DNA of 60,251 bases, the filler included, from Catajapyx aquilonaris (Eukaryota), in assembly GCA_000934665.2 (NCBI GenBank). It is 2 parts of 2 records of this genome, joined end to end, with 100 filler letters (N's around TTAATTAATTAA, not from the genome) between each part and the next. Parts side by side here need not be neighbours in the genome. Positions count along the whole stretch, not along the records: positions 1 to 30,068 come from JYFJ02004691.1; 1 more part is not named here. One strand, 5' to 3'. The position numbers and the translations under genes were made by a program. The notes under the pieces were generated by a model. It saw only the letters and a program-made list of their open reading frames with translations, had not been told where the DNA came from and made no database searches. Positions 1 to 56,200 of the stretch are shown here, piece after piece (position 1 is the first letter of the stretch; the number at the start of each line of letters is the position of its first letter).

Positions 1-2824
1 TCCACTAACCGAGTTAATAATGAAACGCAATATTTGAGCAGGAATGCAGCCGATCAAAACATTTTGCTCCGCACCGCATAATATTACGGAGTCTATAATT
101 GATGCAGGTAAATTTAGCAAGACTGCAGGTTACATAACATAAGCAATAATTACACTATACAGTGGTCTACTAATGCAAAAAATAACCATTTATTATTGAC
201 ACCTGCGCTAGAGGGAACAAACCGTGACCTGGGAAATATACTACGCAGTATGCAGCAATATGGTTTATGTGTCGTAAAGTACCGGTAGGCAACAAAAATA
301 TGGCTCGCGGGGACAGAATAAATTATAATTTTGCATGATAATTTAAATGGGAACAACCAGTGCGACAGTCACGCCCCTTTATTTTAATAGCGTGCTTTAA
401 AAAAATAATTTGATTTGTTGCAGGAGTACTCTTTACCTGAATTACCTGCTTAATAACATTTGTTCTCGACTGACATACTGTACATTAATATTGCAGAATA
501 TAGGTCATCGATTAATTGCTCCTACGCAGGACAATATTGTGTACACAACCTCTTAATGCACCTGGTTGAGGTACTGATGACAACAATTTTGATACTACAT
601 ACTGTATAATTATACTGCAACAGGATATACTAATAATTCCGCTTGAAGTGTAGGACAGTAGTTCATCTCGGCAGGAAAAAAAAGTCTCTAGCTCATAATT
701 AATTATTGTGTTACTCTGCCTTTGCAGCTTTTATACTCATGAATATGTATTGCTTGATAACTACTGTGTATTACACAACATCATGGTGCACTTGCCCAAG
801 TCCACATTCTAATGAAGGAGGGCCCCATTTATGTATTGTTATTTCCACCCACGAAGTTAAGACACAAGCAACAATTAAGGGAGAGAGTTAATATTGTCGG
901 CATACAAATGGAAGCCAAATAAGTTATGAGAAGATTCAATGCAGTGGTTGACCTTTCACTTGTTTACATACCCGCGTGATGATAACAGAAAATCCTGGCT
1001 TGCTGGCTCATTATGAATCTTTAAGACTAAATGGACTTCACCAGGTGGTAAATCATAAATAATGCTAAGTGGTGGTGTAAATTACTCAACACCGACAAAA
1101 TTGTGTGAATTTCTTTTGCATGCGCACTAATTATGTGCCTGATTGTTTATTACAACTTGTTTACTGCTGAACTTGTACAGCGGTGCATCATTGCACCAAT
1201 TTTTCCCCACGCCTACATGATTTTCAAATATAAAACTGCTCTTTTATGGCAACCTATACCTGTGCTAACGACCATCATTAAATTAGAGCAACCACTCGTG
1301 TAATTTTACGGCAGAGAACCATTTAACACATTATACAGTACACCCCCGAAATAGCCCATGCTAACATGTACTGCATTCAACAAGGATCTATTTATACTGA
1401 ACACGCTCGGACTGTACAGTGTGCATCTTATTTGCATCTAAATTGTAGTCCCTTTTTTTTGGCTCTTCCTAGTAGCCGATGTGGCCAATTTAGTGGCTAT
1501 TCATTGCTCAAAATGTCGGGTGGACTTGGTTTAATTGCAACGTTTCAAATTCCCTCCAGAATTGCTTTTAATTGGCACTAGGGGAAAGAAAAACAAGGGT
1601 TGAGCTACGCAGGATCACTAACCTCTGTCCAAGATTCTGCGGACGCAATTCTTGGGTGGCGTCGCTGGCGTCGCCGGCGTCGCCTCGACGCTGGCTGCTT
1701 GGCTACAACGGCGCTCGACGGAAAGAACCGACACTCTTCGGACTGAACCAGGCGACTCTGACCGGATACCGACAATGTCATTGACACAATTTCTGGTGAA
1801 GTTCTCTTACCTCTTACGAGGACACTATTGCCAATTTTTTGCACACAATTTAGTTTCAGAGAGGTGACCTTCCAGGTGGCAACAAACGCTGATTAGATAT
1901 ACTTGAAAGACTTTGTACGACACTCCCATGCATTATGACGCATGTAGATATTATACACCTCGTTTGTTTGTCAAGTTCAAGGATTGATTGACATTCGGCG
2001 CCAATTTGCCTGAATGTGATCAATGAAATGGACCGACAAAAAGATGCGAATTTGCTATTGCGTATATTGTACGAATGATAAGCTGGCTTAAACATAAAAA
2101 CACAATAAATGTTTGGCCCCGATTTCATTTTTGTGAGAAAGTGAGAGTGCGTACTGTACTATAGCACCCCTCATAAGAAGTGATAATAATTACCTGATCT
2201 GGACATGGCTCTCCTCCGATGCTTCTTTCCCATTCCTCCTCCTCCTCCAGAGCCACTGTGACTGCTGGTTCCGCTTCCGGCCAACATTCTTCTCAGGCAC
2301 TTCTAAAACCTCCGTTCCAAACAAAAAAATTCTAGACTTTTAGATGTGTTTATGTAGGTGCAGTCCAGCCGTCTCCACCTTTTGCTCTTCATCTGTACAG
2401 TACACACTATCCCTCTTTCTCTCTTGGTCTGAGACTAAAATTGGAACTGGCGTTCTTAGTGGGTTGGAAGCACCTGGAGAAGGGCCAGGAAGGGGGCCGA
2501 TGAGTGGGTGGATGCTGTGATGTGATGTGTGAATGTGAAGAGTGAGGATATATTGAGGCTCTTACGACCTGGCTCGTGGGTACTGTACACTTATCATACT
2601 GTTGTATAAAGACACTCAACGGCTTGTTTGGCTCACTCAACTGCACGGAAGAATTACTGAGATTCAAATGGTTCATGGGGGTGAACAATCCATGAACTTT
2701 TGTACTTTAAAAATTCGTGTCTATATAAAATGGTAGTTGCATTGTTGCTCACTGTTCCCTGGTTGGATAAAAAAAATCATTGCAGGGTAAATTGCATAGA
2801 AAAAGAGAGTGGTATGCTCTATAG

Positions 2825-2830
2825 TTTATT
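2825..2830 (-). terminator. Candidate polyadenylation signal of the 202-aa gene
   Basis: AATAAA on the minus strand (tttatt on plus), about 130 nt after the TAG stop. Confidence 0.45.
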
Positions 2831-2961
2831 TCTGCATATAAATAGGGTCATCTATACATCTATAACGCTTTCAAATCCGTGTATCAGTTGAGTTGACAGC
2901 TCAAAAGCGGACAAACTCAATGCATTATCATTCCGAGTATACTCAGTTCTTGCTGTTTGAT

Positions 2962-3732
2962 CTATGCGTCGTGAGCCGCCTGATGGAACATCCAGCTGCA
3001 TTCCTCCGGTTGGCAGAACGTGACATTAGGAGGACAATCAGGGATGAGTCGTCTGTCCCAAAAGAGGAGCCTGAGATGCATGAGGTGGGAGATGATGTCC
3101 TTCAAGACAACCCCGAGGGCCAGCGCGCTTCTGTCGCAACCATTGTTGTCTGCTTTGTGGCGACTGCTGCTGTGGTGCTGGTGACGACGTGGATTGTGTC
3201 TCTGCAAGCACTTTTTGGTGCTTACTACCATGTGGATGGACTTGTTTATGTCTCCTGTTGTTCCCCACTTGTCTGCACTAGGAAGAAGGTCTGATATGGT
3301 CGAATACCACTCCAGTTTTTCAGCAGCGTCTTGGACTCCTTGTAATTGCTAGAATTTGAAAAAAAATGTTCATCATGAAAATGTACCACACACACACACA
3401 ATAAATAATTATTGCAAGCTGATTCTTACCGTTCCTCTGATGATGTCCTTTCCTAACGAATGTGGCAGGGTCAGCAACTGGAACTGGGATAATGAGCAGC
3501 CCGACTCATTAACTAGTATTTGGAGGCTGGGGCATAAGCGTGATAGGTGCTCACTTGCTTCGTGGAACATTGCACATGTCTCCTTATGTCCTACTGCAAT
3601 ATTGCTGAATACTGCCAACAATGTGAGCCAGAATATGAACGTGGCTGAAAAGGTTTAATAGCATTGCAATATATCTTATGGCCAACAATAGTGCTATAGC
3701 CAAAAAATGCGTAGGTCTAACATACCTGTCAT
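2962..3732 (-). CDS. Unrecognised 202-aa secreted protein, candidate long-chain four-helix cytokine (3 coding exons)
   Basis: Exons 3732-3726 (ATG ACA G|gtatgt, context tcaacATG), 3644-3430 (ttttcag|...ACG|gtaaga) and 3348-2962 (ttctag|...TAG). Two 81-nt GT-AG introns, phases 1 and 0, give one uninterrupted frame: MTATFIFWLTLLAVFSNIAVG/HKETCAMFHEASEHLSRLCPSLQILVNESGCSLSQFQLLTLPHSLGKDIIRGTQLQGVQDAAEKLEWYSTISDLLPSADKWGTTGDINKSIHMVVSTKKCLQRHNPRRHQHHSSSRHKADNNGCDRSALALGVVLKDIISHLMHLRLLFWDRRLIPDCPPNVTFCQPEECSWMFHQAAHDA. It has a typical signal peptide, 8 Cys and 3 N-glycosylation sequons (NES, NKS, NVT). TATA/Inr lie upstream and AATAAA downstream. The gene model is well supported; the cytokine identity is inference. 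Confidence 0.8.
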
Positions 3733-3784
3733 GTTGATGTGTTGTCCCTGAATACAGATGGTCACAGACACAAGAATGAAACGC

Positions 3785-3854
3785 GAATGATGTCCAGTGG
3801 TCACTTGCGAGTTTATATATTTTATCCCTTGTTGGATAAGTGATCGGGGATCCC
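3785..3854 (-). promoter_or_regulatory. Core promoter of the 202-aa secreted-protein gene
   Basis: Minus-strand TATATAAA at 3819-3812 and an Inr-like TCATTC at 3790-3785 (about 31 nt spacing). GATA motifs at about 3822-3840 and a kB-like GGGGATCCC at 3846-3854. Confidence 0.65.
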
Positions 3855-6800
3855 GGAGGTGTAACAGGAAGTACATGTTCTTCCCCCCCTGCTTCAACTA
3901 CCGGTCGCTCTTTATTTTTCCTTGCCAAATAATCGCGTCCGATTGGGGGCAGATTGGGGAAGAGGTGGGGGAGGAAAAGGATTGCTAGAGGGTGAGGGGA
4001 GGGGAGAAAAGGAAGGTGCATCACTCTGTCACTGCGGAACTATGTCATTCACTATCCCCTTAGATTCACCCCGTCTCGCTTTATCTCACTCACATGTCCG
4101 TTTCAGCTCCTGCGACTTCCGCTTCGGAATTCTTAATATTTGCGGAATTTTTTGCAATTGGTAAAATTACCCCAGGATGAATCATACTTTGTTGCAAAAA
4201 GGGGGAAATTGATTTTTTTGAAAAAATACTGTATACACAGTGACACATAGATTGCTAAGGTGCAACTATTCCTTATAAACCTTGTAATAACATAATTATA
4301 TGATAAATGCCAAAAAAAATCGGCAGGAATTCATGTTGTAAAACATCAGCACCATTACCGCTCCTCACAACTTGGAATGACTCAATCGACTTTTTCATTT
4401 AATGATATATAATTTTAAACATGTCTTTCAAATATAGCCACTGTCGATAATCGAATGTGCACTTCGACACCTCCTTCTGAGTGTGTCACACAACTAACTT
4501 CCTTGTAGATATATTAGAGGTCACTTTTTTTTGTAACGAGGATAAAAATACAACGAACGTTGTGAATAGCGGATGTGATTTTGGATTTCTTCCGATGATA
4601 TAGGTGCCACTCCCATATTCATTATCCTTGCATACTGATATTCTCAAGGGTTGTACTTGAGCTTATCATATAGACGACAATACATAATCGCATGCCGACA
4701 TGTTTTCTCCGTGTATCTATTACTGAACTTGTTATCGCAATGAATGTGTTACTTTTAGAACAGCGGCCTTTATTTTAATCCAGACTCCTGGAGTGCTACT
4801 GTCAACTACGGTACAGTACATTGAACATGCAGATGTGTCATCATCTGTAATGTACTCAAATCATACCGGTACTTAAATAAGAACTCTTTCCCGGATCTGA
4901 GACACTGACTTGGATGCAATCCGGTAATGAATCATTGCATCAAGAACATTGAGTTCATGACCCTATACCAGAGGTTATTCCCGCGTCTCTGCCTCTTGCT
5001 TGCAATTTTTTTTGCCATTAAAATTCGCCATTTCCACAGCCAAATTGCTTCCTTCAAAGGCGATGCTGCATTGTCTTGGTATGTTTTGTTTACTCACATC
5101 ACACAAAACTGGTGACTCATTACAAATCCATATAATGAATTATTAATTTAGTTCTAAAGCAACTTCCAAAACGTTTTTAGGCGGTTGTGTTTTGTCCATT
5201 TATAATACATTTATACATTTGATGTATGGTGTGTTTCCCTCAAAACTGGCACATAGCACGGGGTATTAAAACATATAAAATAAATAAAACGATGCATATT
5301 CTAATAAAATTTTCAAGTAGTTCTATAATGATTAATGTCCGAGCTGTGCTCAGTCTCCGGTTGATGCAATGTTTATCTCTAATTGACGTACATTTCATGC
5401 GTGATTTGTAGAATTACAAAGCAATACAAGGAAGGAAAGTTATTTTTAGCTGAAGAGCAGAGAGATTGCGGTCTGACGTCCTGCTGGAGTTACGTAGTGT
5501 TTATTTGATGACTTATCAATATTATCAGTACACTTGTAACGCAGTTGTTACGGATATAAAATAATGAGATCTGATAATATGTAGTGTATCTCATCCCATT
5601 TTTATGATACAAATATATTGTAGCATAGCATGAGCCGTATGTTGTTATGTAATCATCAGGTGTAAAATCTTACTACAACAATATCTCTGACTTTTTATTA
5701 ACGATATCATTACATGTAATGATCTCATTCGTAAAACACAGTAAATGCTTTTAATATAGTGCTGTGAAATAACATTAATAAGTACAGTACGATACTGCAC
5801 CTTACACGTAATATAAAGAAACACTTAAGCTTAAGCTGTTAAGCGATATCAGGGTATTTTATTTTAATAGAGACCTAAATAGGAACTATTCTACAGGTTA
5901 TACCTATAGGACAATACTATGAAGGTTCTGTCTAATCGTATATAGGACTATATTGATTTCGAGCTTTCTCTTATAAAGAGATAGCTACATTCTTAGGCTA
6001 TATATATAGCTCTCTCCAAATGGGGTTGAACAATTACGTGTGTTTGGAACAGACGCCCTGATTGCGTTTATTTTTTATGTTCGAAATATAGGAAGCAGTA
6101 ATTACTGGAACACCGACCGTTTTCGCCTGACTTATCTTCGTAATTGACCTATTTCTGAACATGGAAGAACTTATATATGACGGCGGGGAGGACAGAAAGA
6201 TCTATCTTCTCATCACAGCAAATGTAACTCGGGTATATAGACCTATAAAAGAGGATGAGGACTTATCACTGTGAATTTCATACGATTTTCTAATAAAATA
6301 ATGTCCCAACCCACGTATACAAGACTCGACAATCGTGACGCAATAGTTTGCAATTTTAAAAAAATTACATTGTGATTATACTCTTTTGCGGTTATCCCTG
6401 TTTCACCATTATTCTGCGGTGCCGCATTACTACATCAGGAAATAATCAGGGCCAGTCGACATATCCGCTTAAGATATATGCAAGAATGTATATGGGAGTT
6501 GCTTAATATCAAACCTTCCGGTATGCAAATCAGTGACAGTCGATGTGAGCTCTTTTTATCCTCGTGTGAAAATATTATGCTATACCCACATCTTCTCTTA
6601 AGTATATTACAAAATCTAGGTATTGCTTACATAAGTGCGAATGGTACTGTACCACGACATTACACCAACATTTTCGGTATATCTGACAAAATAATGACCT
6701 TTGCATTCTTTTATTGATGTAAAGTGTCCCCCACTTGTCCAACTAGCTTATGAAAACTCAACTATAGTTTGTATTAATATATACAGTAGTTACATTTACT

Positions 6801-12088: not shown

Positions 12089-13823
12089 CATAACTCCACC
12101 CCCCTTACCCATCCCGGAGGCTACCTGAATGCTGACTAACAACAAACACACACCTGCTGATTGCCTGCCTTTGCCTGCCCTCCGACCTCTCTGGCAGGTC
12201 TGCAAAAGACGCCCTTCGGCTGTCGTCGGACAGTCACGCCACAAGAATCACAAGGCAGGACCGCTCGGTATCCATCTGCTGCCATGCACACCCGATGTGC
12301 CAAAATATTGGTTGACATAAACAGGGTGAAAGGCACACCAAATATTTTTTTTTTGAAAGGTCCTAAGAGATGACAAGCTGCCCGGATCCGCCGGGGGCCA
12401 CTTGTTTCAAAACCCATCGTCATAAACCCCCTGGAGGGCTGCCTCACCCTGTAGCCAAAGAAGCACGCAAGGTTCCGCCTTTGCAAGCCGCCAATTTCAG
12501 TTTTCTGTCTTCTTTTTGAGGCACCCAACCCTTTTTCTCGGGCCGTAAAGCACTAAGCCATAAACCCACGGTTGACCATCATTTTTTTAAGAAAACCCTT
12601 TCCCCCTCGGGCTTGATTGGACACAGGTTAATTAGGAACCGAGCCGAATAGTTCCTGATACTTACATACTCGTCCCTGAACCTCTGGGCGTGGTAAAGGG
12701 CATTTTTGGCTTGCTGGACCACCTGCCGGATGAGCTCTGTGTCGTCCAGCATCGGCAGGCCGTCTTCTGTGTTGACCTCCAGGGCGGCCCCGGAGTCGAT
12801 TCCGCACGGGTTGACCCATAGCGGCTTGCCTCCTCTCCTCGGAGGTGACGAAGTGTCTGTACGGTCCATTGGCGCTGACCAACACGGATGAGGTAATCGG
12901 AACACGCTGAGGGTGAGGATGCTGATGGCCACGTACCTTCGTAGACCTATCAAGAAAAAAAACATTTAAAGTTACTCTCCGAATTAAATAGGCATATAAA
13001 AAAAACATGGCCTCGGCCGCATTTACAATAGAAAGTCGGTTTGGAAAAACCCAAAACCCTGGCCAGGTCCGGTGCAAAGGAGTTTATCATAAGGCCAGGT
13101 GCGAAAATCCCCCCACCAAGCAAAACCGTTCCCGGATTTATGTTATTTCCACCTTTTTTTGTCCGCGAACCCATGAATGTTTGCGTGATATGTCACGTAT
13201 GAAACAGGTTCGAGCATTGTCACATTTTTTTTGACACCCTCATAAAAAAAACGCCGGAAGGAAGCTCCCCAATATCGATGATAAACAAGCAATGGCATTT
13301 GGCGATATGCGATTGAATCCTGCGCAAGTTCAGGGCCGGTCTTAGCCGTCCGATGACCCACTTATAATGTCCCCATGGATACATGTTGGAAAAGGTGATG
13401 ATGTCGCAGGGATTTTTCTAACATTTGGCGTGGCATGGATCACGCATACACAATTTATATAAAATACACCTGCATAGAGCCTCCCTTCCCTTTCCTCTCA
13501 CAGGATACACGTTACTTTGCTTTTACACCATCAGTTTCCCATCAACTTCCAGAGCAACCATCATGTTCAAACCCGTCCCGTCATATTCACTGATGAGTAA
13601 TAGCAAAAGCACCGCATATATTTAAAAAAAAAAACAGTGTATCACGAATCGTTCGGCATAAGCCTCGTTAAATAAAAATAAAATCACTGGACTCACCTTT
13701 AAATAACTGTGCGTATGAAATTGTAGGAATGAGCCGTCTCCTTTGCCTGAACCTAAGTGCAGGCACCACCGGTACGACACTCATATCGTCGTATGTAAGT
13801 CTCGACTCGCCCATATCGCACAT
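8513..13823 (-). CDS. upd: Unpaired (Upd)-like JAK/STAT cytokine, 305 aa, 5 coding exons
   Basis: Exons 13823-13697 (MCDMGES...QLFK G|gtgagt), 12946-12666 (...YVAISILTLSVFRLPHPCWSAP...PLWVNPCG...RFRDEY|gtaagt), 10368-10228 (VQKTF...YDWLP...LQGLQ|gtcagt), 9298-9161 (LVASLQHTYQALQKFAVGLEQVVMDQ...KLKA|gtatgc) and 8743-8513 (VLCELQVAM...RNLRDWFIFRDYMNGLEY...KS*). All introns are GT-AG, phases 1,0,0,0. The motifs WxNPCG, LQxxAVGLEQ, LCE and RxxRDWxxxRDYxxxLEY match arthropod Upd-like cytokines as I recall them. Confidence 0.88.
9461..9520. promoter_or_regulatory. Overlapping STAT and NF-kB consensus sites plus AP-1, in upd-like intron 3
   Basis: TTCCTGGAA (9461-9469, TTCN3GAA) overlaps GGAATTCCCC (9466-9475, reverse GGGGAATTCC). 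TGACTCA at 9514-9520. Confidence 0.45.
12058..12086. repeat. (CT)n microsatellite
   Basis: Dinucleotide run read directly. Confidence 0.9.
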
Positions 13824-43343: not shown

Positions 43344-44419
43344 AAAGTTACCCTGTGATTTTCCAGTTTTTGAGTGAAACTAAATATCTACTTTGAGAAA
43401 AACCATATAACCTGATCACCTTCTACATATACATGGACTGATGGGGTTTTATGGTGCAAAAGCTCCATCAGAACAAGATAGTGTTTTAAAATGAAAACAC
43501 TCTGAAAAGTCCCTGAATTAATTAGCATCGTAGTACATAATATGGTCCAATTGAAATGCTCACAATATATTGTAATCAATCCTTGTTAGGAAATCCCTTT
43601 TTAATTTCTGGCGCTATTAAGTCACACTTAGTGATGATAGCTTTTGATGACAGGATGAAAAGGGAAAACTCAGAAAGAGCCCGATGAAACTCTTTTCACA
43701 TGAGAAAACCCTTTCTCTGACTCACAGATTGAATGCAGGACCTCAGAGGGGAAGGTTGGGTCACTACACCATGCTGCCCTCACTCGCTGTAAAACTGATG
43801 CACATAAAACTTGTAGCTATTAATGGTTAGAATAATAATTGGGTGTAGTGCCATACCTCTATAGAGGTTTGGGCACCGACCTTTATTTTTGTCAAGATGG
43901 TACGGTACATTATTTTGACAGTGCAGAAATGGCCCTCGCCTCGGTCCAAGGGCAGGGTGGCAGGAGGGGATGTGCAAAGTGCGGTGCAATGTCGGTGCTG
44001 TGGCCATTTTGTGAACCCCCCCCCCCCCCCCCCNCCGGGTGGTTTGTCTTAACAGAGATACCACCCAAGACGAAGCCAGAGACGACCTCTAATTAACTCT
44101 GCATGAGATGAAGGGGGGAACCCCGGGCGGGATTTGAGCGCCACTTCGCCTCCCTATCTCTTAATGGTTAAAAGGGTTTAACACATTCAAATGCCCCATT
44201 TTGAATGTTGGGGCTCATGAGAAGATCATGTGTGGTCTTGAAAGCTGATAACACTGAATTATATAGCCAGCTAGAAGAGAAGTGGCCAATCAGCAACCAT
44301 TGCACTTCAAATTGCTTTCCAGGTATAAACTATTATTCCACATACTGGTGTGCTTACTGAGAGGGAACTCTTTTCTGAGCATTGAAACAAAAACCAGGTG
44401 AAAACATGCAGCACATTAT

Positions 44420-45355
44420 GGCTAATTGCTTCGAAGTTGCCAATGTACGGGGGCGACTCTTGCGAAGCCTCTTTTTCATCCTCTTCCATACCATTTCAAT
44501 TGGATTCATGTCGGGGCGGGCTGTTTGGGGGCCATGGCAACACCTCAACTTCATTATCCTGCAGCCATTTCTTGGTAGTTTTGGCCATATGTGGTGTGGC
44601 ATTGTCTTGTTGGAAAATGGCATCACCCAACGGCCCCAGTTTTGGGATGGACGGCAGGAGATTCGTCTGCAAGATATCTTGATAAGCTTTGGCGTCAATT
44701 TTACCATCGACAAAATGTAGCTTTCCAAGTCCATTCATGCCCATGCAACCCCATATCATCCCACTTGACGCATGTTTCACTGTTCAGGTCAGGCAATCTG
44801 GGTTGAAGGCCTCCTCCTTTGTGCGTAGTACACGCCGATTAGAGACACCAGGATCTACACAGAAGGTGGATTCGTCGCTGAATATCACTGTTGACCAAAT
44901 CCTCTTGCTCCAGTTCCGCCTTTCCTTTGCCCAACAAAGTCTGGTCTGTTTATGCTTCGCTCTCAAGAGAGGTTTCTTCTTCGACTAAAATGTAAACAGT
45001 CATAAAAATGTTGCATATTTGCATGTTTTTAAAATGAACTTACCGTGTAGAAGCTGAGGCCCAGGTCATGTATTCGACGGTGGCAGGTTTCTCTCGACAC
45101 GTGTGAGCCTCAGCTGTTCCTCTTCACCAGTTTTCGGAGGCAGCGGTCGTCCCTCATTGTCGTTTCCCTCTGTCTCCCAGAGGGCCACTTAGGTTTGACC
45201 GTGCCCCTGTGCTTACATTTTCTAGTGATGTCGGATAGAGTGCTCTGTCGCAGTCCAAGTTGTCTGGAGATTGCCCTGCCTGACTTTATTCCATCCTCGT
45301 GGGCCTTCAGAATTACCTCGCGGAGGTCCGTAGATGTGGAACGTCCACGTCCCAT
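44420..45355 (-). pseudogene. Degenerate Tc1-family (DD34E, Minos-like) transposase with a 59-nt intron
   Basis: MGRGRSTSTDLREVIL...GRQRETTMRDDR...GLSFYT|intron 45043-44985 (gtaagt...ttttag)|SKKKPLL...VIFSDES...IWGCM...FQQDNATPH...WPPNSP/DMNPIE. 34 residues separate the second D and the E. Two in-frame TGA stops (about 45110 and 44784), a frameshift near 44515 and a decayed C-terminus. TIRs not identified. Confidence 0.92.
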
Positions 45356-47225
45356 GGTATGGGCAATGCCAACACTGGCCGCACAGCCCTTATATACGTG
45401 CAGATAACATTGTCGCACTGGTTTCTGGGAGTAAAATAGCCATAAGATGTATGGGCCATATCCTCCTGACCGATTGATATTGTGTCAGTGCGCACTGTGA
45501 ACGAATATTTCCGTGTCTGGTAGAGCATGTTCAGGAGGGCATCTTATTTACGGTAATTGTCCGATAGTCATCATTTCTAGTCCCAGTGGTAGACCAGAGA
45601 CACCTCTGTACAGTGCTAAAGTCACAACATCCTACCACGCATCGTTCCGACGGTATGACACATTTCCCATCTCCATCCAAGCAGATTCGCTGGTGAACGT
45701 ACCATTATGATTTTGGGCAAGGAGAACATGACAACGGTGAGCAATCTTTCATGAAATTCCATTATCCAGTCCAGATGGTTGGTAAAGAATGCGTTGGGAT
45801 TGAAACACAGCAATTGTAATGTTAGGAATGTATTTAATCATAACTTATTACACTTATTTTTCATACCTTTGCCACACAACACTATCTTCTCTCTCTCCAC
45901 CCTTCAAGGGACATCACTCAGCCTTTCACACTAAGAAATTCGATAGGTTACTTCCAAATATCCTAAATATAAAGTCAGATTATTTACAAGACCATTAAGT
46001 AAAAATGCACGGCTGCCTTTGCTATCGATATATTTCCTTGCAATACGTAACAATACATTTGAAATGAAACAGTCAATTACTGGCTCACAAGCTACAGTAA
46101 AACCTGCGTGTAACAGTCCCTGAAATAAGTGAGACCTTGTGTCCAAAATCGAATTTTTGCTTGGTCCCTGTGGAGAATTTTCGATATACTTTCGTCGTTG
46201 TCATAATTTATGCTGCCAAGTGGCAACAATATTTTTTTTTGTAGGGAGTACATGTTGGCCTCTGATGGGGTGTACAGGATGGTGTACAAGGTAGTGCAGC
46301 TGAGCTAGATGGGGCAAGGAGTCTTGGCTGGAGTGGAACAGGGCTGACATGTACTCCCTCTGTGCTTGCTGAATGAAGGTCATTGTTCAAGTGAGTGAGT
46401 GGATGGCAAAAGTGGAATGCATGCACACTGGAGAAGGTAGGGGTGGTTTTTCTTGCAGCAATTGAGACACCCCACCTGTTTGAGGGTGCACATCATGGAT
46501 TCCTCACTTTTGCCTGCTACTAGCTCACATGAAGTACCTTAAAGCTGGTAATTTGGGAAATGCTGTCTCTGCTGGAGAACCTGAACCCCTGAGACGATGT
46601 ACATCACACTATAATTATAACAGACACCCGTTCAGTACAGAAATTTTTTCATGGAATGAAGCAATTCTCGACAGGTTTTACTGCATCCATGCTATTAACT
46701 ACCACAATAAAATGACATTTGCAATAACCTAACGACTAGAAAACTGAAAATGAGAGCAAAGGTAACCTAACAGTTTTGGGAAATTGTAACAGCCACAACA
46801 ATAAACACTTCCTTTCACCACATAGGTCTATGTGACACCAGATTGAGGTTAAATGTAGAGCACCATTGAGACATAAGAACAGCTTGATTGCATTGGAATA
46901 GCAAAAAATTGAGTAGCCTACTCAGTTGCCACAACTAATTATCCAAATTCGTTAAGCGTTGAGAGGACTAGTTTAAAACATGCTATGTTAAAATCTCTGA
47001 GGAATTATTTCGTTGGATGACATATAATATTGCCTATACTACATTCGTAATACCCTGCTAATCACTGAGCAAAAAATTAACTTGAGGCAAGCAATGCCGA
47101 TATGTCTAGCGATTTAAGTAGGCAGATTTTGGCACATGACCTCTGCTCCAAAAATACCTTTTTGTTGCCTCTTTATATGTGTGATATTTATTTTGTATGG
47201 ATGGAAAATATGTGTGTGTGCTGGT

Positions 47226-50200
47226 TTATTGTGAAGCACCAGGGGCTGAACCTAGGACCTCCTGCCGCACCGTCTCGTCATCCAGCAGGTCAAGTGAGGA
47301 GGCCACATTGTTCCCCTTTGCTCGGATCACATCTTCTGCCCGCTGCCAGATCACTCTGTTGCGATGTACTGCCTCCAAGGGCTCAGAACCTCTTTTAAAC
47401 AGGCCAGCTACCATTCTGGAAAGGCAAGAAAAGATGCTAAAGGTGGTATCAAGGAACGAAGGGATAAAATACACTTAGGGCCTGAGGAGCTCTGGAGGGG
47501 CCCACGCTTTATGCAGCTCACTTCGATCGCTAATTTTAAAATATAGAACCTCAATTATCCGACTCCTTCTTATATCCGACTGTCCCACTCCAGCAATAAT
47601 TCTGTTTTCTCTTCAAATACTGTACTGCAGGTCTACTAAACATTAGTTTTGTATTCATTTAGCTAAATTTATTGTAAATAGAGTACAGAAGAGCATTTAT
47701 CGTCGGCATTAAGGAGAAAGGGCAAATATACCATTTTAGAACTTTTACAGGAAAGGCAAAAATAGGTTGAAAGTACGAGGGCCAGTCAAAAGAAATTGAG
47801 ACTGATTTTTTATGTGATAAAGTGAATTACTTCATGACTAGCGGTGAATGGCATCATGTCCAGTATTGATTGAAGTATTAGAACACAAATTCTTGTTTGA
47901 ATTGAGGAAGTATAGACCTAGGTTCACATTAGCCTCCACTCTGCCAGAGATCAGCTGCGAGGACCAAAATTCAGCGTTGAGGTTTTGCTTCCGTTTGAAT
48001 AAAACAGCCAAAGAGGTGTACGACATGCTAAGATTGTGAACAGCAGATACTTTTTATTTTTATTTTTTATTTTACTTACCCCATTGGGAGAATATCAGCG
48101 CTCCTTTAGGGGGGTGGAATACCACCATTTTTTCATGTCAATTTTTCGGAAATTTTTCTTCTAACACCGTGCAGTGGAGAAAGGGAAATGGGGAGGGGAA
48201 TTGGGATTTTTGGTGAGGGGACACAGGTGCAAGTGCAATGTCTGAAAAGAGTCATGTGCAGTCCCCCAGGGGCTAGGTTGCCAAGACGCCTCCTTAGGCG
48301 CGGGTCAGAGACCCACTGACGCAGGCGGAAGGAACTCCCGGGCGGGGATCGAACCCGGGACCTTCCGCACAGCAAGCCGAGACGTTACCATCTCGGCCAC
48401 CACGCCTCTCCCAACAGCAGATACTGGTTACCATGTGAGGCCACAATATGTTGCAACTCTTTGCAAACCTCCAACAGGATGTGCTTCTACTCTGGAGTCA
48501 ACAGCTCACATCAGGTGCACACTCACTGCATGTGCAAATGGTCAATGCAAAATCGTGTGGGCACTACCACTGGAGGTACTAATCATTCTGGCAAGGTCAT
48601 TGATGGTCATGCGGCTATCTACCCGGACACTTACTGCACATGTGGTGTTAATGATCTCCTCTGTAAGAACTCTGAGAGTCTGCACACCTGTCTCTTTGAG
48701 AGCCAACTACGGACCCTTGCTGAGTGCCTTGTACCATCAGAATGCTATGGGACTCATCTTCAGTTCTTCACTATATCTTAGCATGTCATACTCCTCCATC
48801 ACTGTTGTCTTCAAATGGAAGCAAAACCGCCGACCAGGTAGTACCTGTTTTACGCCGGTAATTGGTTCCAGCAAAATGCGGCGTAAAGTGAGAAGGCGGA
48901 AAACGAGACAAAATTATAATGGAAGTAAATGAGCTAGGTTCCAAGATTTCCAACTATTTTACTCACAAGGGACATTCCAAGTGGCTAGAGGTGACTAATA
49001 TCATGACAAATATCCAACTCATGTGCACTAGTAGTTTTCCAGAACCACTACAATAGTGAAAGTTTAAAATAGTAGGAATGGATTCCAGGTGATACAACTC
49101 GATTCCACTTTACCAACCTCCGTGAATTATGGGGAAAGACCACACCTTCAGCGGTGCACCATAATCACGAGCATAGAGTTTATCACCTGGCACAGAGCAA
49201 TCTCCATCTCCCCTACTAATTTGGCAATATATTATTTTGCTCTCCCACTTTTTAAATTCCCAGCAATTAAGTTTTAGTGGCATCACTTCACAATCTACAA
49301 ACAGGCAGGTTGCATTCATGTGTACTATTTGACAAATTTTAGTAAGAATAAAATTGTTTCTATCCCGCATTGTTTTCCTATTATTTTATTCACTTCAAAA
49401 ACATGAAATGTACTCACTCAAAAACAGGTATGACTATGTCATCCAGAAACTGAATCTGTAGTGATGGTACAAATGCCTTCTCCCTGTCCATCATCTCATT
49501 TGGACTGTTCCCCATGGCTTTCTCCAGGTCACCCTGAGAGAAGAACTCTTGATAGACCAAGTCCTGCAAAGAGCAAATAAATCAGGAGAAACATCGAAAA
49601 TAGGCTTCACCACATGAAGACTTGAAATGCAGAATGATCAGACTCATTTGACTGATTTTGAGACACTGTATGTGGGTTTAAAGTTGAAAGATTACATTAT
49701 CCCTTATTGGATGATCCTATTTTTATTTTTCCAAAAATTTCTCCATCAATATTCTGACTTCAACATCATAAAGTACCTTTCAATGACACTGTTAAACACC
49801 TAACTCAATTTAGACCAAACTGTTACTATGATTGTTCAGCATTTCCTGTCTTGACATGTTATATAGCATTTTCACATCCCAAAAGGTGAGACAACATTTT
49901 CTCATACAAGCTTTGAAAATCAGCATCTTGTTCTGCTTCTAGAATTCAATTGAAGCACCCATTATGGAAACACCCCAACTCCAATGGTCTGCGCCTGGAG
50001 TTGGGGTGTTTCCATAATGGGTGCTTCAATTACAAATCTCAAACTCAGGTTTCTGGGTAATGAGGCAAAGGTGTCAAAAGCAGCACAACTGTTTCTTTCC
50101 CAAATTTCGAAGCAATTACTAACTGCAATTTTCCTGGTACTGGTCCAGTCCTTTGTCTGGTCCGAAATATCACAAGCAGTCATGAGCAGGCAGAGAAGAA

Positions 50201-53200
50201 GGTTGTGGTGGGCAGCATCATTCTTGTCGTACCCATTTTCCACCATGGCGCGCAGATCTCCAAGTATACGCAAATGATGAGCCAAATCAGTGGCTGATAA
50301 TTTTAAAATAAGGATGCCATTAAAATACAGGTTTCAAAGAGTGGTCCAAGGGCTGTCTTTACAATTGTAATTACTGGGGTACGGTATTTACACATGCACA
50401 ACATAATTTCTATCAGATTCTCTATAATTCCCCAGTACATTTCATTTGAAGCACACAAGTACGTACAAAGCATCTGATAGCAAATGGAAACGATAAACTA
50501 ATAACTAACCTAAAATAACGTCCCTCATCAGATCCAGGCAGCGGGTGTAAGCCTTTTCAGAGAAACGCTCAAGTATATTGCAGCCATCTGTGTTCAGCAC
50601 GCACATGGTCTGGGAGAAGTGATGTCTCTGTTTACACACCCCAAGGGGGCAAGGAAAAAAGCGTCATGAAAGAGAAGTAAATATGTAACAGTTTGCTGCT
50701 AGTGAGTCACTCTGTACAGTGTTGGACATAAATCGAGGCATACTGGTAGCGACATTTTCCGTAGCAGCAGAAGAAGGAATCAAAGATATGCATTCTGCAA
50801 GCTGGGCGAGCATGATTCCTTCTTCTGCCGCTTCAGAAAATGTCGCTAGCAGTATGCCTCGATTTATGTCCAACACTGTACCATGTCAGAAGAATAATAT
50901 TGTTTTGGTTCCATTTCTCACAATACAATCTTGGAAAGACTGCTTATACTACCCATGATACTGTACATGCTATTACTATTTACTGCAATTATTTGGGTAG
51001 GTTGTTCTGTGGAATATTTAATACCACTGCATAATTTTTTACTATCTGGCACGCAATCATCCATTGAGTTTTGGAGTAAGACTGACAGTAACGACATAAA
51101 TAATTACATACAACATGCATGACTCACTAAACACCAAAGAATTTTTCAATGTTGTGTTATGTGAAAGTTGGCACATAACTCTTAAGGCCTGTTTCCACCG
51201 GCATAATTTTTAGCTCAAAAAGTAATGCACAAAAATCAAAAATCAAACAGTTTCGAATTATTCCGAAGTACAAAATTTTGAACTTTTCACAAAATAATTG
51301 TGCCCGGCACAAAATGGAAATACAAGATGGCCAACCGTGGTGGACTTATAGGAATTATTTTGCAATAATTCAAGCACAATTGATGGTTAAATTAAGCTAA
51401 ACGATTTTCGGACGGGGGTTCAGTTTAAATAAAATACATTTGGAACTTTGGGTGCTCCCTTCTGAGCGCTCAGTCAGGGAGCATATACTACATAAGAGGC
51501 GCAAACATTCGATTTTTACGTCTCTTTGTTTATAGGGCGTTGCCAAGGCTGGCGGCCATCTTGAAGTGTGTGGTGCGCCAACGAGGTATAAATAGGGTAC
51601 AGACAGGCCGTCAAGGTCCGCGGGGGTCCGCCATCTTTGATGGTTTTGGCTGCCATGGCAATACATGGCAATAACAATTTACTTACCCATTCCAATATCG
51701 AATTCAAATTCGCGCGTGTTCTTGGCGTGTAGTTGCCATGGCCGCCAAAATCATCAAAGATGGCGGACCCTATTTTTGCCTGTACCCTATTCATACCTCG
51801 TTGGCGCACCACACACTTCAAGATGGCCGCCAGCCTTGGCAATGCCCTATAAACAGAGAGACGCGAACATCAAAGGCGCCGACAGAAGTTTGCGCCTCTT
51901 ATGTAGTATATGCTCCCTGTCTCAGTTTTGTTTCTTTTTGTGAAAATAACAAAAATTGTCCAGGTTGGAACAAGTGTTTATTTGTGCTGCACCAAAATTG
52001 CCAGGGAAACAAAATTTATGCTATAATAATTTTGTTTCCCTGGCAATTTTTGTGCAGCACAAATAAACACTTGTTCCAACCTGGACAATTTTTGTTCTTT
52101 TCACAAAAAGAAACAAAACTGAGCGCTCAGAAGGGAGCACCCAAAGTTCCAAATGTATTCTATTTAAACTGAACCCCCGTCCGAAAATTGTTTAGCTTAA
52201 TTTAACCATCAATTGTGCTTGAATTATTGCAAAATAATTCCTATAAGTCCACCACGGTTGGCCATCTTGCATTTCCATTTTGTGCCGGGTACAATTATTT
52301 TGTGAAAGTTCAAAATTTTGTACTTTGGAATAATTCCAAAGTGTTTAATTTTGTGCTCCATTTTTGTGCGTTTCATTTTGTGCTCAAAAATTATGCCAGT
52401 GGAAACAGGACTTAAGTCTCCGACAACATCTCCCTAAAAAAAGCATCAACAACACTCACCAAGACTCACCTCCATGACAGAGCCCTCTGATGAGTAAAGA
52501 GCAGCTAGGACGGAGTTGGAGGCTAGCTGGAAGGAATTGGTGGTCCCACGGTGGTCTAGGTCATGACATAGGCAGGCAACAAACAGGGTCAATGCTTCCA
52601 GCTCACTGAAAACAGTAGGGTAGAAATATCAGTGTCCTCATTTTATGTTATCTCTAGAGCAGTTACAAGTGGCAGAATTGGTGGCAGACATGATACTCAT
52701 GAAGTGGGAGGTGTGCGGAAAAAAAAATCCTCATAGCCTTCTTGTATGTCAGAGAGAATCTAAAGCCACTAAGAGAGGGGCTTTACTGTCCTCATGACAA
52801 AAATGTCAAACCTGCTTGCAAGGTAATAATTCATGTAGGTAGGATAGTCAGAGAGGTAGGCCAGATGAGATGAGAAGGTTGTTACAGAACTGTTCCCAAT
52901 GACAAGGTAAAACTTTAAAAATTATCGCCTCCTCTAATTCTCCACCACATTTATGGCAGAAGCATTACTTTAACCTTGAACTGAGAGAGTTAAATATTTA
53001 TGCACGAGATCTTTGATGAAATTTGTTGTATGGGGTCAGGCATTATCATGGCATTCTCGCACACAAGGATTATGTAAATAGTTGTTGTACTGTATTGTTT
53101 AGGGAATAGTCTCAAGAAAAGAAGTCTGTACATGTTCAGTACAGAAGCAACTATGGCATGCCTAACTACATAGTACAACAAGTGCTGGAAAGAGACTGAG

Positions 53201-56200
53201 GATCTGTGAAATGGTTACAGGCTGCAGCAGGGTATGCTTAGACATAACTTCATTCACATGGATTCAGTATATTGCTAGGCGCAAGTTCTTTGTAAGGGAG
53301 GTGTTAGCCTTCAATTAATAACTCAACGTGATGGATTTTTGGAGAGCTTTTTTGCTATAGGAAATTGAATATATCAAGGGCTAGCTCTAACATTCTTTTC
53401 AGCAGCCATATTTAAGCTATTTTTTGGCAGACAATATTGCTTTAAAAATTTGATAATAGTTGCACTTTAACAAAATACTGTTGAGTTTTGAAATCAGGAT
53501 TTAAAAATAGCAGAATTCCCTAACTAAGTGACACTCACGTAAGGTACCCCTCTTCAAGAAGTTTAAAATTCTTAATCATGATGTAGCAGAAGTGAGCAAC
53601 AGAGAAGGCATGCATCCAGTTGTGGTATGGTGGATCACGGTACCCCTTCTTGATCATCAATACAAAACGAGACAGGGTGTGTTTGTCTATCTCCAGCTGG
53701 CCTGTGGTCTTTCCTCCCCCACCACCACCACCACTAATCCTCACCACACCCAAGTCAGACAGCATGCTGAGAACCAATGGAGGTGTCTCCCTGTCAGGAA
53801 CACTGCGGGGCAGGAAGGTAAAGGAGACGAAGCCTGGATGAGACTCCCAGCAGGGCATTATGAGGTGAGTTGACAGGGCATGTACCTCCTCATGAAACAC
53901 CTGCAAGAAAGTAGGAATGTCCTCAACAGTTTCCCAAAATGAAACTGTGTATTCATGCTACAATGACACTGAAGGGGGCCAAAATACATTACATTGCGCA
54001 ACATGTTAAAGATAGGTTTTGCTGGTATCTTTGTCATACTTTACTCCTTGGTGGTTTAAAAAAATTGCCTAAAAACTTTGCAGGCAAGAATTTCTCATTA
54101 AAGCTAGATGTCCAAACTAGGTGATGTGACCATGGCATCAGGCTGTAAGGTTACAGCAACAGGTTTTCCAGCAGTCAGTGGTTATAACTGGTGACAACGA
54201 TAAACAGAAATGGATGGCATATCACTTAGTTTGTACCTGACCTAATATAACTCTATCTTGTATCATGTTGGTAACTACAGAGAACCCAATACTGACTTTC
54301 AGCATTCGATTATTAGGCCTAGCTTTGACTTCCTGATGATAGAAATCAATTATGTCACTGGAGTCAGCCCTGGAACATAGGCAGTTGCCTAGGGCTGCAG
54401 ATTTCAAGAGGCGGCAAATTTAGGCATACAAAAAAGTAAACGAAAATTTAATCATAAATAATTATGCGACTGGAAGCAGCACCGGATTTAACATTAGGCA
54501 CAGTAGGCAATTGCCTAGGGGCGGCTGTGAGTTGCAATAAACATTTTTCAAATAGGCTACAATAATAGGAAAGAAAGGCGAAATCATTTAAAAATTCAAA
54601 GTTTTGAGCGCCGCCGGATTTACCACTAGGCATAAAACCTTCATATAAGGGCGGCCGCGCTCCGGGGGTGGGTAGGTGGGCGGCCATAAGTTGCAACATA
54701 AATTTTTAAAAATAAAATGAAATGAAATGGAGGGAACTCAGAACAATTGAATTATTAAGCGGCATTGGGGGGNGCGGCCAGGTGGGTAAATCAGGCACTG
54801 ACTGGAGTCACTTCATAAAACTAAAACGGGGGAGGTGTGGTGGCCAAGATGGTAACGTCTCGGCTTGCTGAGTGAAAGGCCCCAGGTTCGATCCCCGCCT
54901 GGGGAACTTCCTTTCACCTGCGTCGGGAGGGTCTCTGACCTGCACCAAGGAGGTGTCTGGCAACCTAACCTCCTGGGGGACTGCACATGGCCCAAAAGGC
55001 TAGGACAATGCACCTGCACAAGTGTCCCCTCCCCAACAATCCCTTTCCATACCCTATATCCCGAACCAGTCCTTGCACGGAGTTTGAAGTAAAAAACAGA
55101 AAACTGATGGTGGTATGCCACCCCCCTATAGCTCCCGTAAGGGACATCACGGGGTAATTAAAAAATAAAACAAAGATAAAAAAAATAAAACTAAAACGAA
55201 TCAAGGGAATATGTTGACTGTTAGAAGTGATCCACAAGCATGAAAAATTACGTCTTATAATCTGAATAACCCTTGGATGGTGACATGGGCACTTTTTGTG
55301 ACCAACGCCACATTTTTGGTATAACATGGAAAATATAGAACATTTGAGCTTCACCTTTGAGAACATCTTTGGTTGATTCCTTCTGCGATAAATGGCATTG
55401 CTTTTTTTGTTTTTTTAAAGGAAATAGCATGATCAGGAAAAAATAAATTGGACACCAATGTGTAGTTGGGGCCAAATCCACATTTCAAAAGTGATTCACT
55501 TCCTGCTTTCCGGTGGGGAACCTGAGCTTATAGGTAGTGATTCATGAACAGTTACTCTAAAATTAAGCCAGCCTTCCCACAACTTCAAAAAAATACACAA
55601 AATAACCCATGACTTGATCTGAATGCGGGTTCCAAACGCAGGCATATTTTGGCTCCAACAACACATCGTTGCATATTTTTTCTTCTTTCTAATCATACTA
55701 TTTGCTCAAAAAATGTAAACTAAATGCACTTAATAGCAGAAGGAATCAACCCGAGATTGTCTTAAAGATAAAGCCCAAATATGCTCGATTTCCCATGTAA
55801 TAACAAAAAATGTGAATTGGTCACCACAAGTGCCCACATCACCGGAGGGAAAACTATGTGTATGTCACCATCACAGAGATAAGTAAACCTACTTGACAGA
55901 TTGTCACTAGTCCACTACTTTGCATCAGAACTCAACAAATTCACAAATTACTTGTTTTTTGACAGTCCAATTCAGTGATGTGCCATTGCAAGTCTACTTC
56001 CCACTCCCTATGCACATGCATCAGCAACCTTTTAGGCTGGTTGTACGAAGTCTGGCTCCCAACAAACTGAGGATTTCCCACCAGATGCGGATCTTTACGG
56101 GTTTTTCATGAAGTGCCTGATACAAGTAGGTGGTTTGAGGGATTTTTGGCCAACTCAGACAGCAGACAAAAAAATTGAAGGTAGTAGTTTTCTGAACATT

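Follow-up and report, generated by a model that had tools for sequence, protein, structure and literature searches.

The question raised by this locus is whether DNA that carries no gene annotation encodes a secreted protein and, if it does, to what kind of protein it gives rise. A preliminary description had proposed a three-exon gene whose 202-aa product looked like a divergent long-chain four-helix cytokine of a family that was not recognised. We therefore ask whether the exons form a gene at all, and whether the product belongs with the cytokines. Judged from its sequence, the candidate is best explained as a real, unannotated, taxonomically restricted arthropod gene for a secreted glycoprotein, a reading to which we assign a probability of roughly two in three.

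The window, by which we mean the whole stretch of 60,251 nucleotides that was analysed, is eukaryotic DNA with a GC content of 43%, microsatellites and assembly gaps. The gaps, located at about 30.6–32.6 kb and at 40.4 kb (644 N in all), are flanked by runs of Gly or Pro codons (G or C homopolymers), which produce long artificial open frames in ORF lists. Elsewhere in the window, the minus strand contains exons of a 3'5'-cyclic nucleotide phosphodiesterase at 49962–50333 and 53535–53957 (PF00233 at E 1.2e-10 and, just under the cut-off, at 4.1e-05) as well as the remnant of a Tc1/Sleeping-Beauty-type transposase at 44354–45484 (HTH_SB at E 2.4e-10, slightly below the cut-off, and a weak DDE_3), the frame of which is broken between two pieces. 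The elements of the candidate gene all fall within 3817–2825 of the minus strand:

3812..3817, minus strand: TATA box (TATAAA) at about −29 relative to the initiator A, part of the single TATAAA-N17-25-TCAKTY match
3785..3790, minus strand: initiator-like TCATTC, with A 3788 as the predicted transcription start
3726..3788, minus strand: exon 1, a predicted 56-nt 5'UTR followed by the first 7 coding nt
3732, minus strand: start codon ATG in the context ATCAAC-ATG (CAAC-ATG)
3732–3726, minus strand: first coding exon, 7 nt, ATGACAG, from reading of the sequence
3645..3725, minus strand: intron 1, 81 nt, phase 1, CAG/GTATGT ... CCTTTTCAG/CC (GTATGT...TTTTCAG), GC 0.35
3430..3644, minus strand: exon 2, 215 nt, with the remainder of the signal peptide (to 3589), Cys26, Cys40, Cys52 and the sequon N48, GC 0.47
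3349..3429, minus strand: intron 2, 81 nt, phase 0, ACG/GTAAGA ... AAATTCTAG/CA (GTAAGA...TTCTAG), GC 0.28
2962..3348, minus strand: coding part of exon 3, 128 codons and TAG (at 2964–2962), GC 0.52
2825..2830, minus strand: polyadenylation signal AATAAA, 131 nt past the stop codon

Spliced at its two introns, both canonical GT-AG and 81 nt each, the coding sequence amounts to 609 nt and yields a single open frame of 202 aa. The 7-nt first coding exon, the two canonical introns and the one open frame that had been proposed could thus be reconstructed from the sequence, and the TATA/Inr pair, the CAAC-ATG context and the AATAAA were each read at their place on the minus strand. Counting in the 202-aa product likewise returned the eight Cys (residues 26, 40, 52, 121, 145, 179, 186 and 191) and the three N-glycosylation sequons (N48, N109 and N182) of the preliminary description. 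There is no ATG upstream of the start in the predicted 56-nt 5'UTR, and intron 2 holds a (GT)n run together with in-frame stops. The N-terminus, MTATFIFWLTLLAVFSNIAVG, is hydrophobic and agrees with the 21-aa signal peptide assumed before, the predicted cut falling after Gly21 (A at −3, G at −1) and ahead of His22; both the signal peptide and its cleavage site were called from hydrophobicity and by eye. In exon 3, three helices are predicted; this exon also encodes a loop rich in His and Arg and a C-terminal tail rich in Cys, and contributes Cys121, 145, 179, 186 and 191 and the sequons N109 and N182. The splice junctions and the start are predictions from these signals, and the choice of start codon depends on the 7-nt exon.

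Might such a structure arise without any gene, from two chance open frames that happen to be joinable by GT-AG sites behind promoter-like motifs? Several observations agree with this explanation. A homologue was not found in any collection searched, the folding confidence of exon 3 is low, and a 128-aa frame is in itself unremarkable because stop-to-stop frames of 110 aa or more number 58 in the window, with several N-run artefacts among them. To weigh the spliced structure as a whole, we used a model finder that assembles models from an ATG start and up to two GT-AG introns of 50–300 nt (up to three exons), with splice donor and acceptor thresholds equal to the strength of the candidate's own sites and set after the candidate had been seen. 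Models of 200 aa or more whose N-terminus was signal-like were obtained at one locus of the real window, namely the candidate. Order-3 Markov simulations of the window contained a comparable locus in one of 40 cases, which leaves room for chance in a scan that covered very many windows. The reversed window, in contrast, yielded no signal-like model of at least 200 aa and not even one model, of any kind, as long as 150 aa.

Further evidence against a chance origin comes from independent signals that coincide at the locus: splice sites in phase, a signal-like start, an AATAAA, a 5'UTR free of ATG and a contrast in GC content, which is higher in the exons (0.47 and 0.52) than in the introns (0.35 and 0.28) and the 3'UTR (0.36). 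In addition, the sole TATA and Inr pair of the window is at the right place and on the right strand, TATAAA-N17-25-TCAKTY matching once in the 60 kb, at the candidate's 5' end, with 0.74 matches expected on both strands. The codon-position GC of the candidate (0.51/0.41/0.58) and that of the neighbouring conserved gene (0.60/0.35/0.69) both follow the order GC3 > GC1 > GC2. The candidate DNA is single-copy within the window and therefore not a repeat, and a tblastn search of the window for paralogues recovered only the candidate locus itself; a weak match at 44481–44666 (E 0.003), inside the transposase remnant, was taken as compositional. From this sequence evidence, we regard the candidate as probably a real protein-coding gene, and do not rate the chance any higher because the thresholds were chosen post hoc and very many windows were scanned overall. 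Joinable frames without a gene are, by the same assessment, rather unlikely.

That the family had not been recognised earlier was borne out by every search for relatives. Neither exon 3 (P0001, 128 aa) nor exon 2 (P0002, 71 aa) matched a Pfam family at E up to 10, nothing scored in a word-indexed search of 5.8 billion proteins, and an exhaustive HMMER search with exon 3 against 1.84 billion representatives gave no match at E up to 0.001. The sequences of the PDB contained nothing under E 0.1, and none of the 101 pattern matches from a metagenome scan with exon 3 was a relative. The collections searched do include arthropod proteomes, as the last exon of the neighbouring gene retrieved 62 proteins from them, mostly from named insects. 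Given such collections and yet no match, the candidate should be confined to a narrow lineage, evolve very fast or be unannotated elsewhere. Close relatives of the source species are probably absent from the searched collections, neither gene's own product being there. At present, the protein predicted from this sequence fits no family.

For the secreted glycoprotein that we favour, the predicted elements suggest the following course of expression. RNA polymerase II would start at the TATA/Inr core promoter near 3788, the two 81-nt introns would be spliced out, and translation would begin at ATG 3732, the first one. Directed into the ER by its hydrophobic N-terminus, the 202-aa product would be cut after approximately Gly21, leaving a chain of 181 residues that may be N-glycosylated at up to three sites and whose eight Cys could form up to four disulfides. 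The protein released in this way would be partly alpha-helical, have a loop rich in His and Arg and a Cys-rich tail at its C-terminus, and be expected to act as a soluble extracellular factor. By its position and make-up, the candidate would most plausibly be a fast-evolving signalling or immune protein.

The position is of interest on account of the adjoining gene. On the same strand, 4.8 kb upstream of the candidate and within a shared neighbourhood of 11 kb, lies a gene with the following exons:

ending at 13697, minus strand: first coding exon, from exon reading
12947–12666, minus strand: exon with WVNPCG (W-V-NPCG), from the all-frame motif scan
10368–10228, minus strand: exon, from exon reading
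9298–9161, minus strand: exon, from exon reading
8743–8513, minus strand: last exon, with LCE and RDWFIFRDY (RDWFIFRDYMNGLEY), from the all-frame motif scan

The last exon matches its 62 proteins at 49–67% identity. The family is conserved in Hymenoptera (bees, wasps, sawflies and ants), mayflies and Orthoptera (a katydid), and members also occur in unnamed assemblies; in the named species, they are mostly annotated as "uncharacterized" or "hypothetical", and they include LOC108623612 of Ceratina calcarata, LOC107992404 of Apis cerana and B566_EDAN008517 of Ephemera danica. W-x-NPCG, LCE and RDWxIFRDYMNGLEY are invariant columns of the family. When one member, P0014, was modelled by AlphaFold from an alignment (pLDDT 89, pTM 0.87), it showed four long helices (36–66, 109–137, 142–165 and 190–223) with long AB and CD loops, and the best Foldseek matches of this model are IL-11, IL-6, OSM, IL-27, G-CSF, LIF, prolactin and CNTF (E from 0.01 upward, TM normalised to the target 0.6–0.8). 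The language-model features of P0014 place it at 0.90–0.95 to the clusters of cardiotrophin-1/CNTF, LIF/OSM, G-CSF/IL-6/IL-11 and IL-12a. The Pfam family Unpaired (PF15972) matched one of 27 family members below threshold (22.9 bits, the cut-off being 27), and no match to it came from single exons of the neighbour itself. By its motifs and by the predicted fold of this member, the neighbour is a genuine IL-6-class, Unpaired-type four-helix cytokine gene. Unpaired-type relatives are also present on two metagenome contigs, L001 (1290 nt, at 632–958) and L002 (3233 nt, at 2786–3233), with 54% and 44% identity to P0014, respectively. These contigs presumably represent arthropod DNA in environmental samples, and in the metagenome scan with the neighbour family they offered no usable downstream flank for an analysis of synteny.

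With such a neighbour, the candidate itself might be a highly divergent long-chain four-helix cytokine of the IL-6/Upd class, although we consider this unlikely. It would then be a second ligand, originating next to an Upd-type gene and activating JAK/STAT by way of a Domeless-type receptor, a sequence of events that we regard as doubtful. The idea takes its force from the location of the candidate: an IL-6-class cytokine gene lies 4.8 kb upstream of it on the same strand. Helical cytokine genes are often clustered in tandem, as in the Drosophila upd1-3 cluster, and this habit adds to the case. Size, signal peptide and helices of exon 3 near the predicted places are all compatible with a cytokine, the candidate with its 202 aa and a signal called by hydrophobicity fitting a secreted protein of about 150–250 aa, and both genes have a phase-0 intron just ahead of the putative helix B.

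The predicted structure adds little to this. Folded alone and without an alignment (AF2, 128 of the 202 residues), exon 3 is helical at a pLDDT of 51, and the modelled helices at exon residues 2–13, 31–51 and 65–91 correspond roughly to the segments B, C and D of the preliminary description. At this pLDDT, the packing of the model is not informative, and a value this low would also be expected of a non-protein. Structural matches to the exon-3 model were generic helical bundles, with no cytokine chain among the 50 matches listed. A two-chain fold of mature exon 2 with exon 3, run without controls, scored 0.01 against a mark of 0.34 and speaks neither for nor against a cytokine. The preliminary description had further taken the amphipathic nature of the four segments as a sign of a cytokine, and this argument did not hold up: hydrophobic moments were 0.15–0.36 for the four proposed helices and 0.15–0.31 for those of the true cytokine, both within about 1 sd of shuffled sequences. 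Amphipathicity does not discriminate here, since the helices of the true cytokine score no better and both sets lie near the shuffled values.

Direct comparison with the neighbour lends no support to kinship. The language-model features of exon 3, which makes up 63% of the chain, reached at best 0.81, at noise level and to unrelated clusters, whereas the same tool puts P0014 at 0.90–0.95 to the CT-1, LIF, G-CSF and IL-6 clusters; set against this positive control and with 63% of the chain covered, the result may be read as a modest negative. Alignment to the neighbour family by hhalign gave probabilities of 0.13% for exon 3 and 0.04% for the full length, and in a Smith-Waterman alignment of the two mature chains (z = −0.5) the real score was equalled or exceeded by 347 of 500 shuffles. 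The invariant motifs of the neighbour family are all absent from the candidate. That the candidate lacks the Upd motifs (WxNPCG, LCE and RDWxxxRDY) had been noticed before and was confirmed by the all-frame motif scan, which located them in the window only at 12.9 kb and at 8.5–8.8 kb, that is, in the neighbouring gene, 5–10 kb upstream of the candidate. The architecture differs as well. Putative helix A (residues 26–49) runs into Cys-Pro after about 15 residues, the candidate contains eight Cys and ends in a Cys-rich tail whereas the neighbour family conserves two Cys, and apart from the shared introns the exon plans diverge, with three coding exons against five.

Some apparent links at the locus did not withstand scrutiny. 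The hexapeptide QLQG[LV]Q, shared by the two genes at the intron that precedes helix B, was dismissed as a coincidence: the two genes encode it with different codons, its residues are unconserved across the family, and the alignment as a whole does not exceed chance. A kappaB-like and GATA pair upstream of the TATA box was rejected, the GATA failing WGATAR and the locus not being among the four pairs found. STAT sites of the form TTCNNNGAA occur 13 times in the window with 20 expected; exon 2 contains one of them, and the promoter has none. The case for a cytokine draws on position, size and weakly predicted helices, and on these we would give it a small chance. A second helical cytokine that has diverged beyond recognition, and that forms a private ligand axis invisible to homology searches, accordingly appears to us a long shot.

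Two further frames would leave the gene real and change its product. An in-frame ATG at 3876 on the minus strand would give 250 aa if transcription began further upstream, the frame being open from 3897 through 3876 to the exon-1 donor; the hydrophobic stretch would then be internal and make the product a signal-anchor or membrane protein. On the plus strand, the frame 2866–3294 is open for 142 codons (142 aa); its codons are in register with those of exon 3 on the other strand, and it encodes a hydrophobic segment where exon 3 encodes the His-rich loop. Even taken together, these versions are very improbable, as the ATG at 3876 sits upstream of the TATA/Inr pair, the plus-strand frame met only noise in Pfam (DUF6480 at E 0.24), the model search gave no plus-strand model as long as 150 aa at the locus, and GC3 > GC1 fits the minus strand.

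What the locus means depends on which of these readings is right. Should the candidate prove no more than an orphan secreted protein, it would be one more of a common class, and its value would lie mainly in the correction of the annotation. If it were truly a helical cytokine, the cytokine families of arthropods would be larger than sequence searches suggest. A gene-dense spot with a clear Unpaired-type ligand and an adjoining unannotated secreted protein is a sensible place to seek further ligands. Upd1-3 are the Drosophila ligands (PMC9195186; bioRxiv 10.64898/2026.10.26.761873), and the abstract of one of these sources (PMC9195186) describes the activators of JAK/STAT in arthropods outside Drosophila as largely unknown.

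The secreted glycoprotein that we favour can be set beside four known systems. The first is the family of the neighbouring gene, with which the candidate shares secretion, a mature form of about 200 aa and predicted helices, and, at the level of the gene, two introns, one of phase 1 near the start of the leader and one of phase 0 ahead of putative helix B. Unlike that family, however, the candidate has no detectable sequence or profile similarity to it and no W-x-NPCG, LCE or RDWxIFRDYMNGLEY, and while the neighbour's last exon has 62 related proteins, none was found for the candidate. The vertebrate cytokines IL-6, IL-11, LIF, G-CSF, leptin and GH/prolactin resemble the candidate in length, signal peptide, glycosylation and few disulfides, and vertebrate long-chain cytokines have similarly long loops between the putative helices. 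The C-x6-C pair near the C-terminus of the candidate may recall the small C-terminal loop of GH/prolactin. In contrast to these vertebrate proteins, the candidate shows no match to Pfam IL6, LIF_OSM, CNTF or Hormone_1 at E up to 10. Pfam PF15972 "Unpaired", which represents Drosophila Upd1-3, is comparable in that it describes a secreted arthropod protein and is touched by the adjoining gene's family, whereas no match to it at E up to 10 came from the exons of the candidate; this counts as a weak negative, given that single exons of the neighbour failed to match the model too. Lastly, the arthropod "orphan" small secreted proteins form a descriptive class rather than a family, in which membership is silent on mechanism; the candidate is like them in being short, with few exons, a signal peptide, no homologues, a fold that would be stabilised by Cys and a compact promoter.
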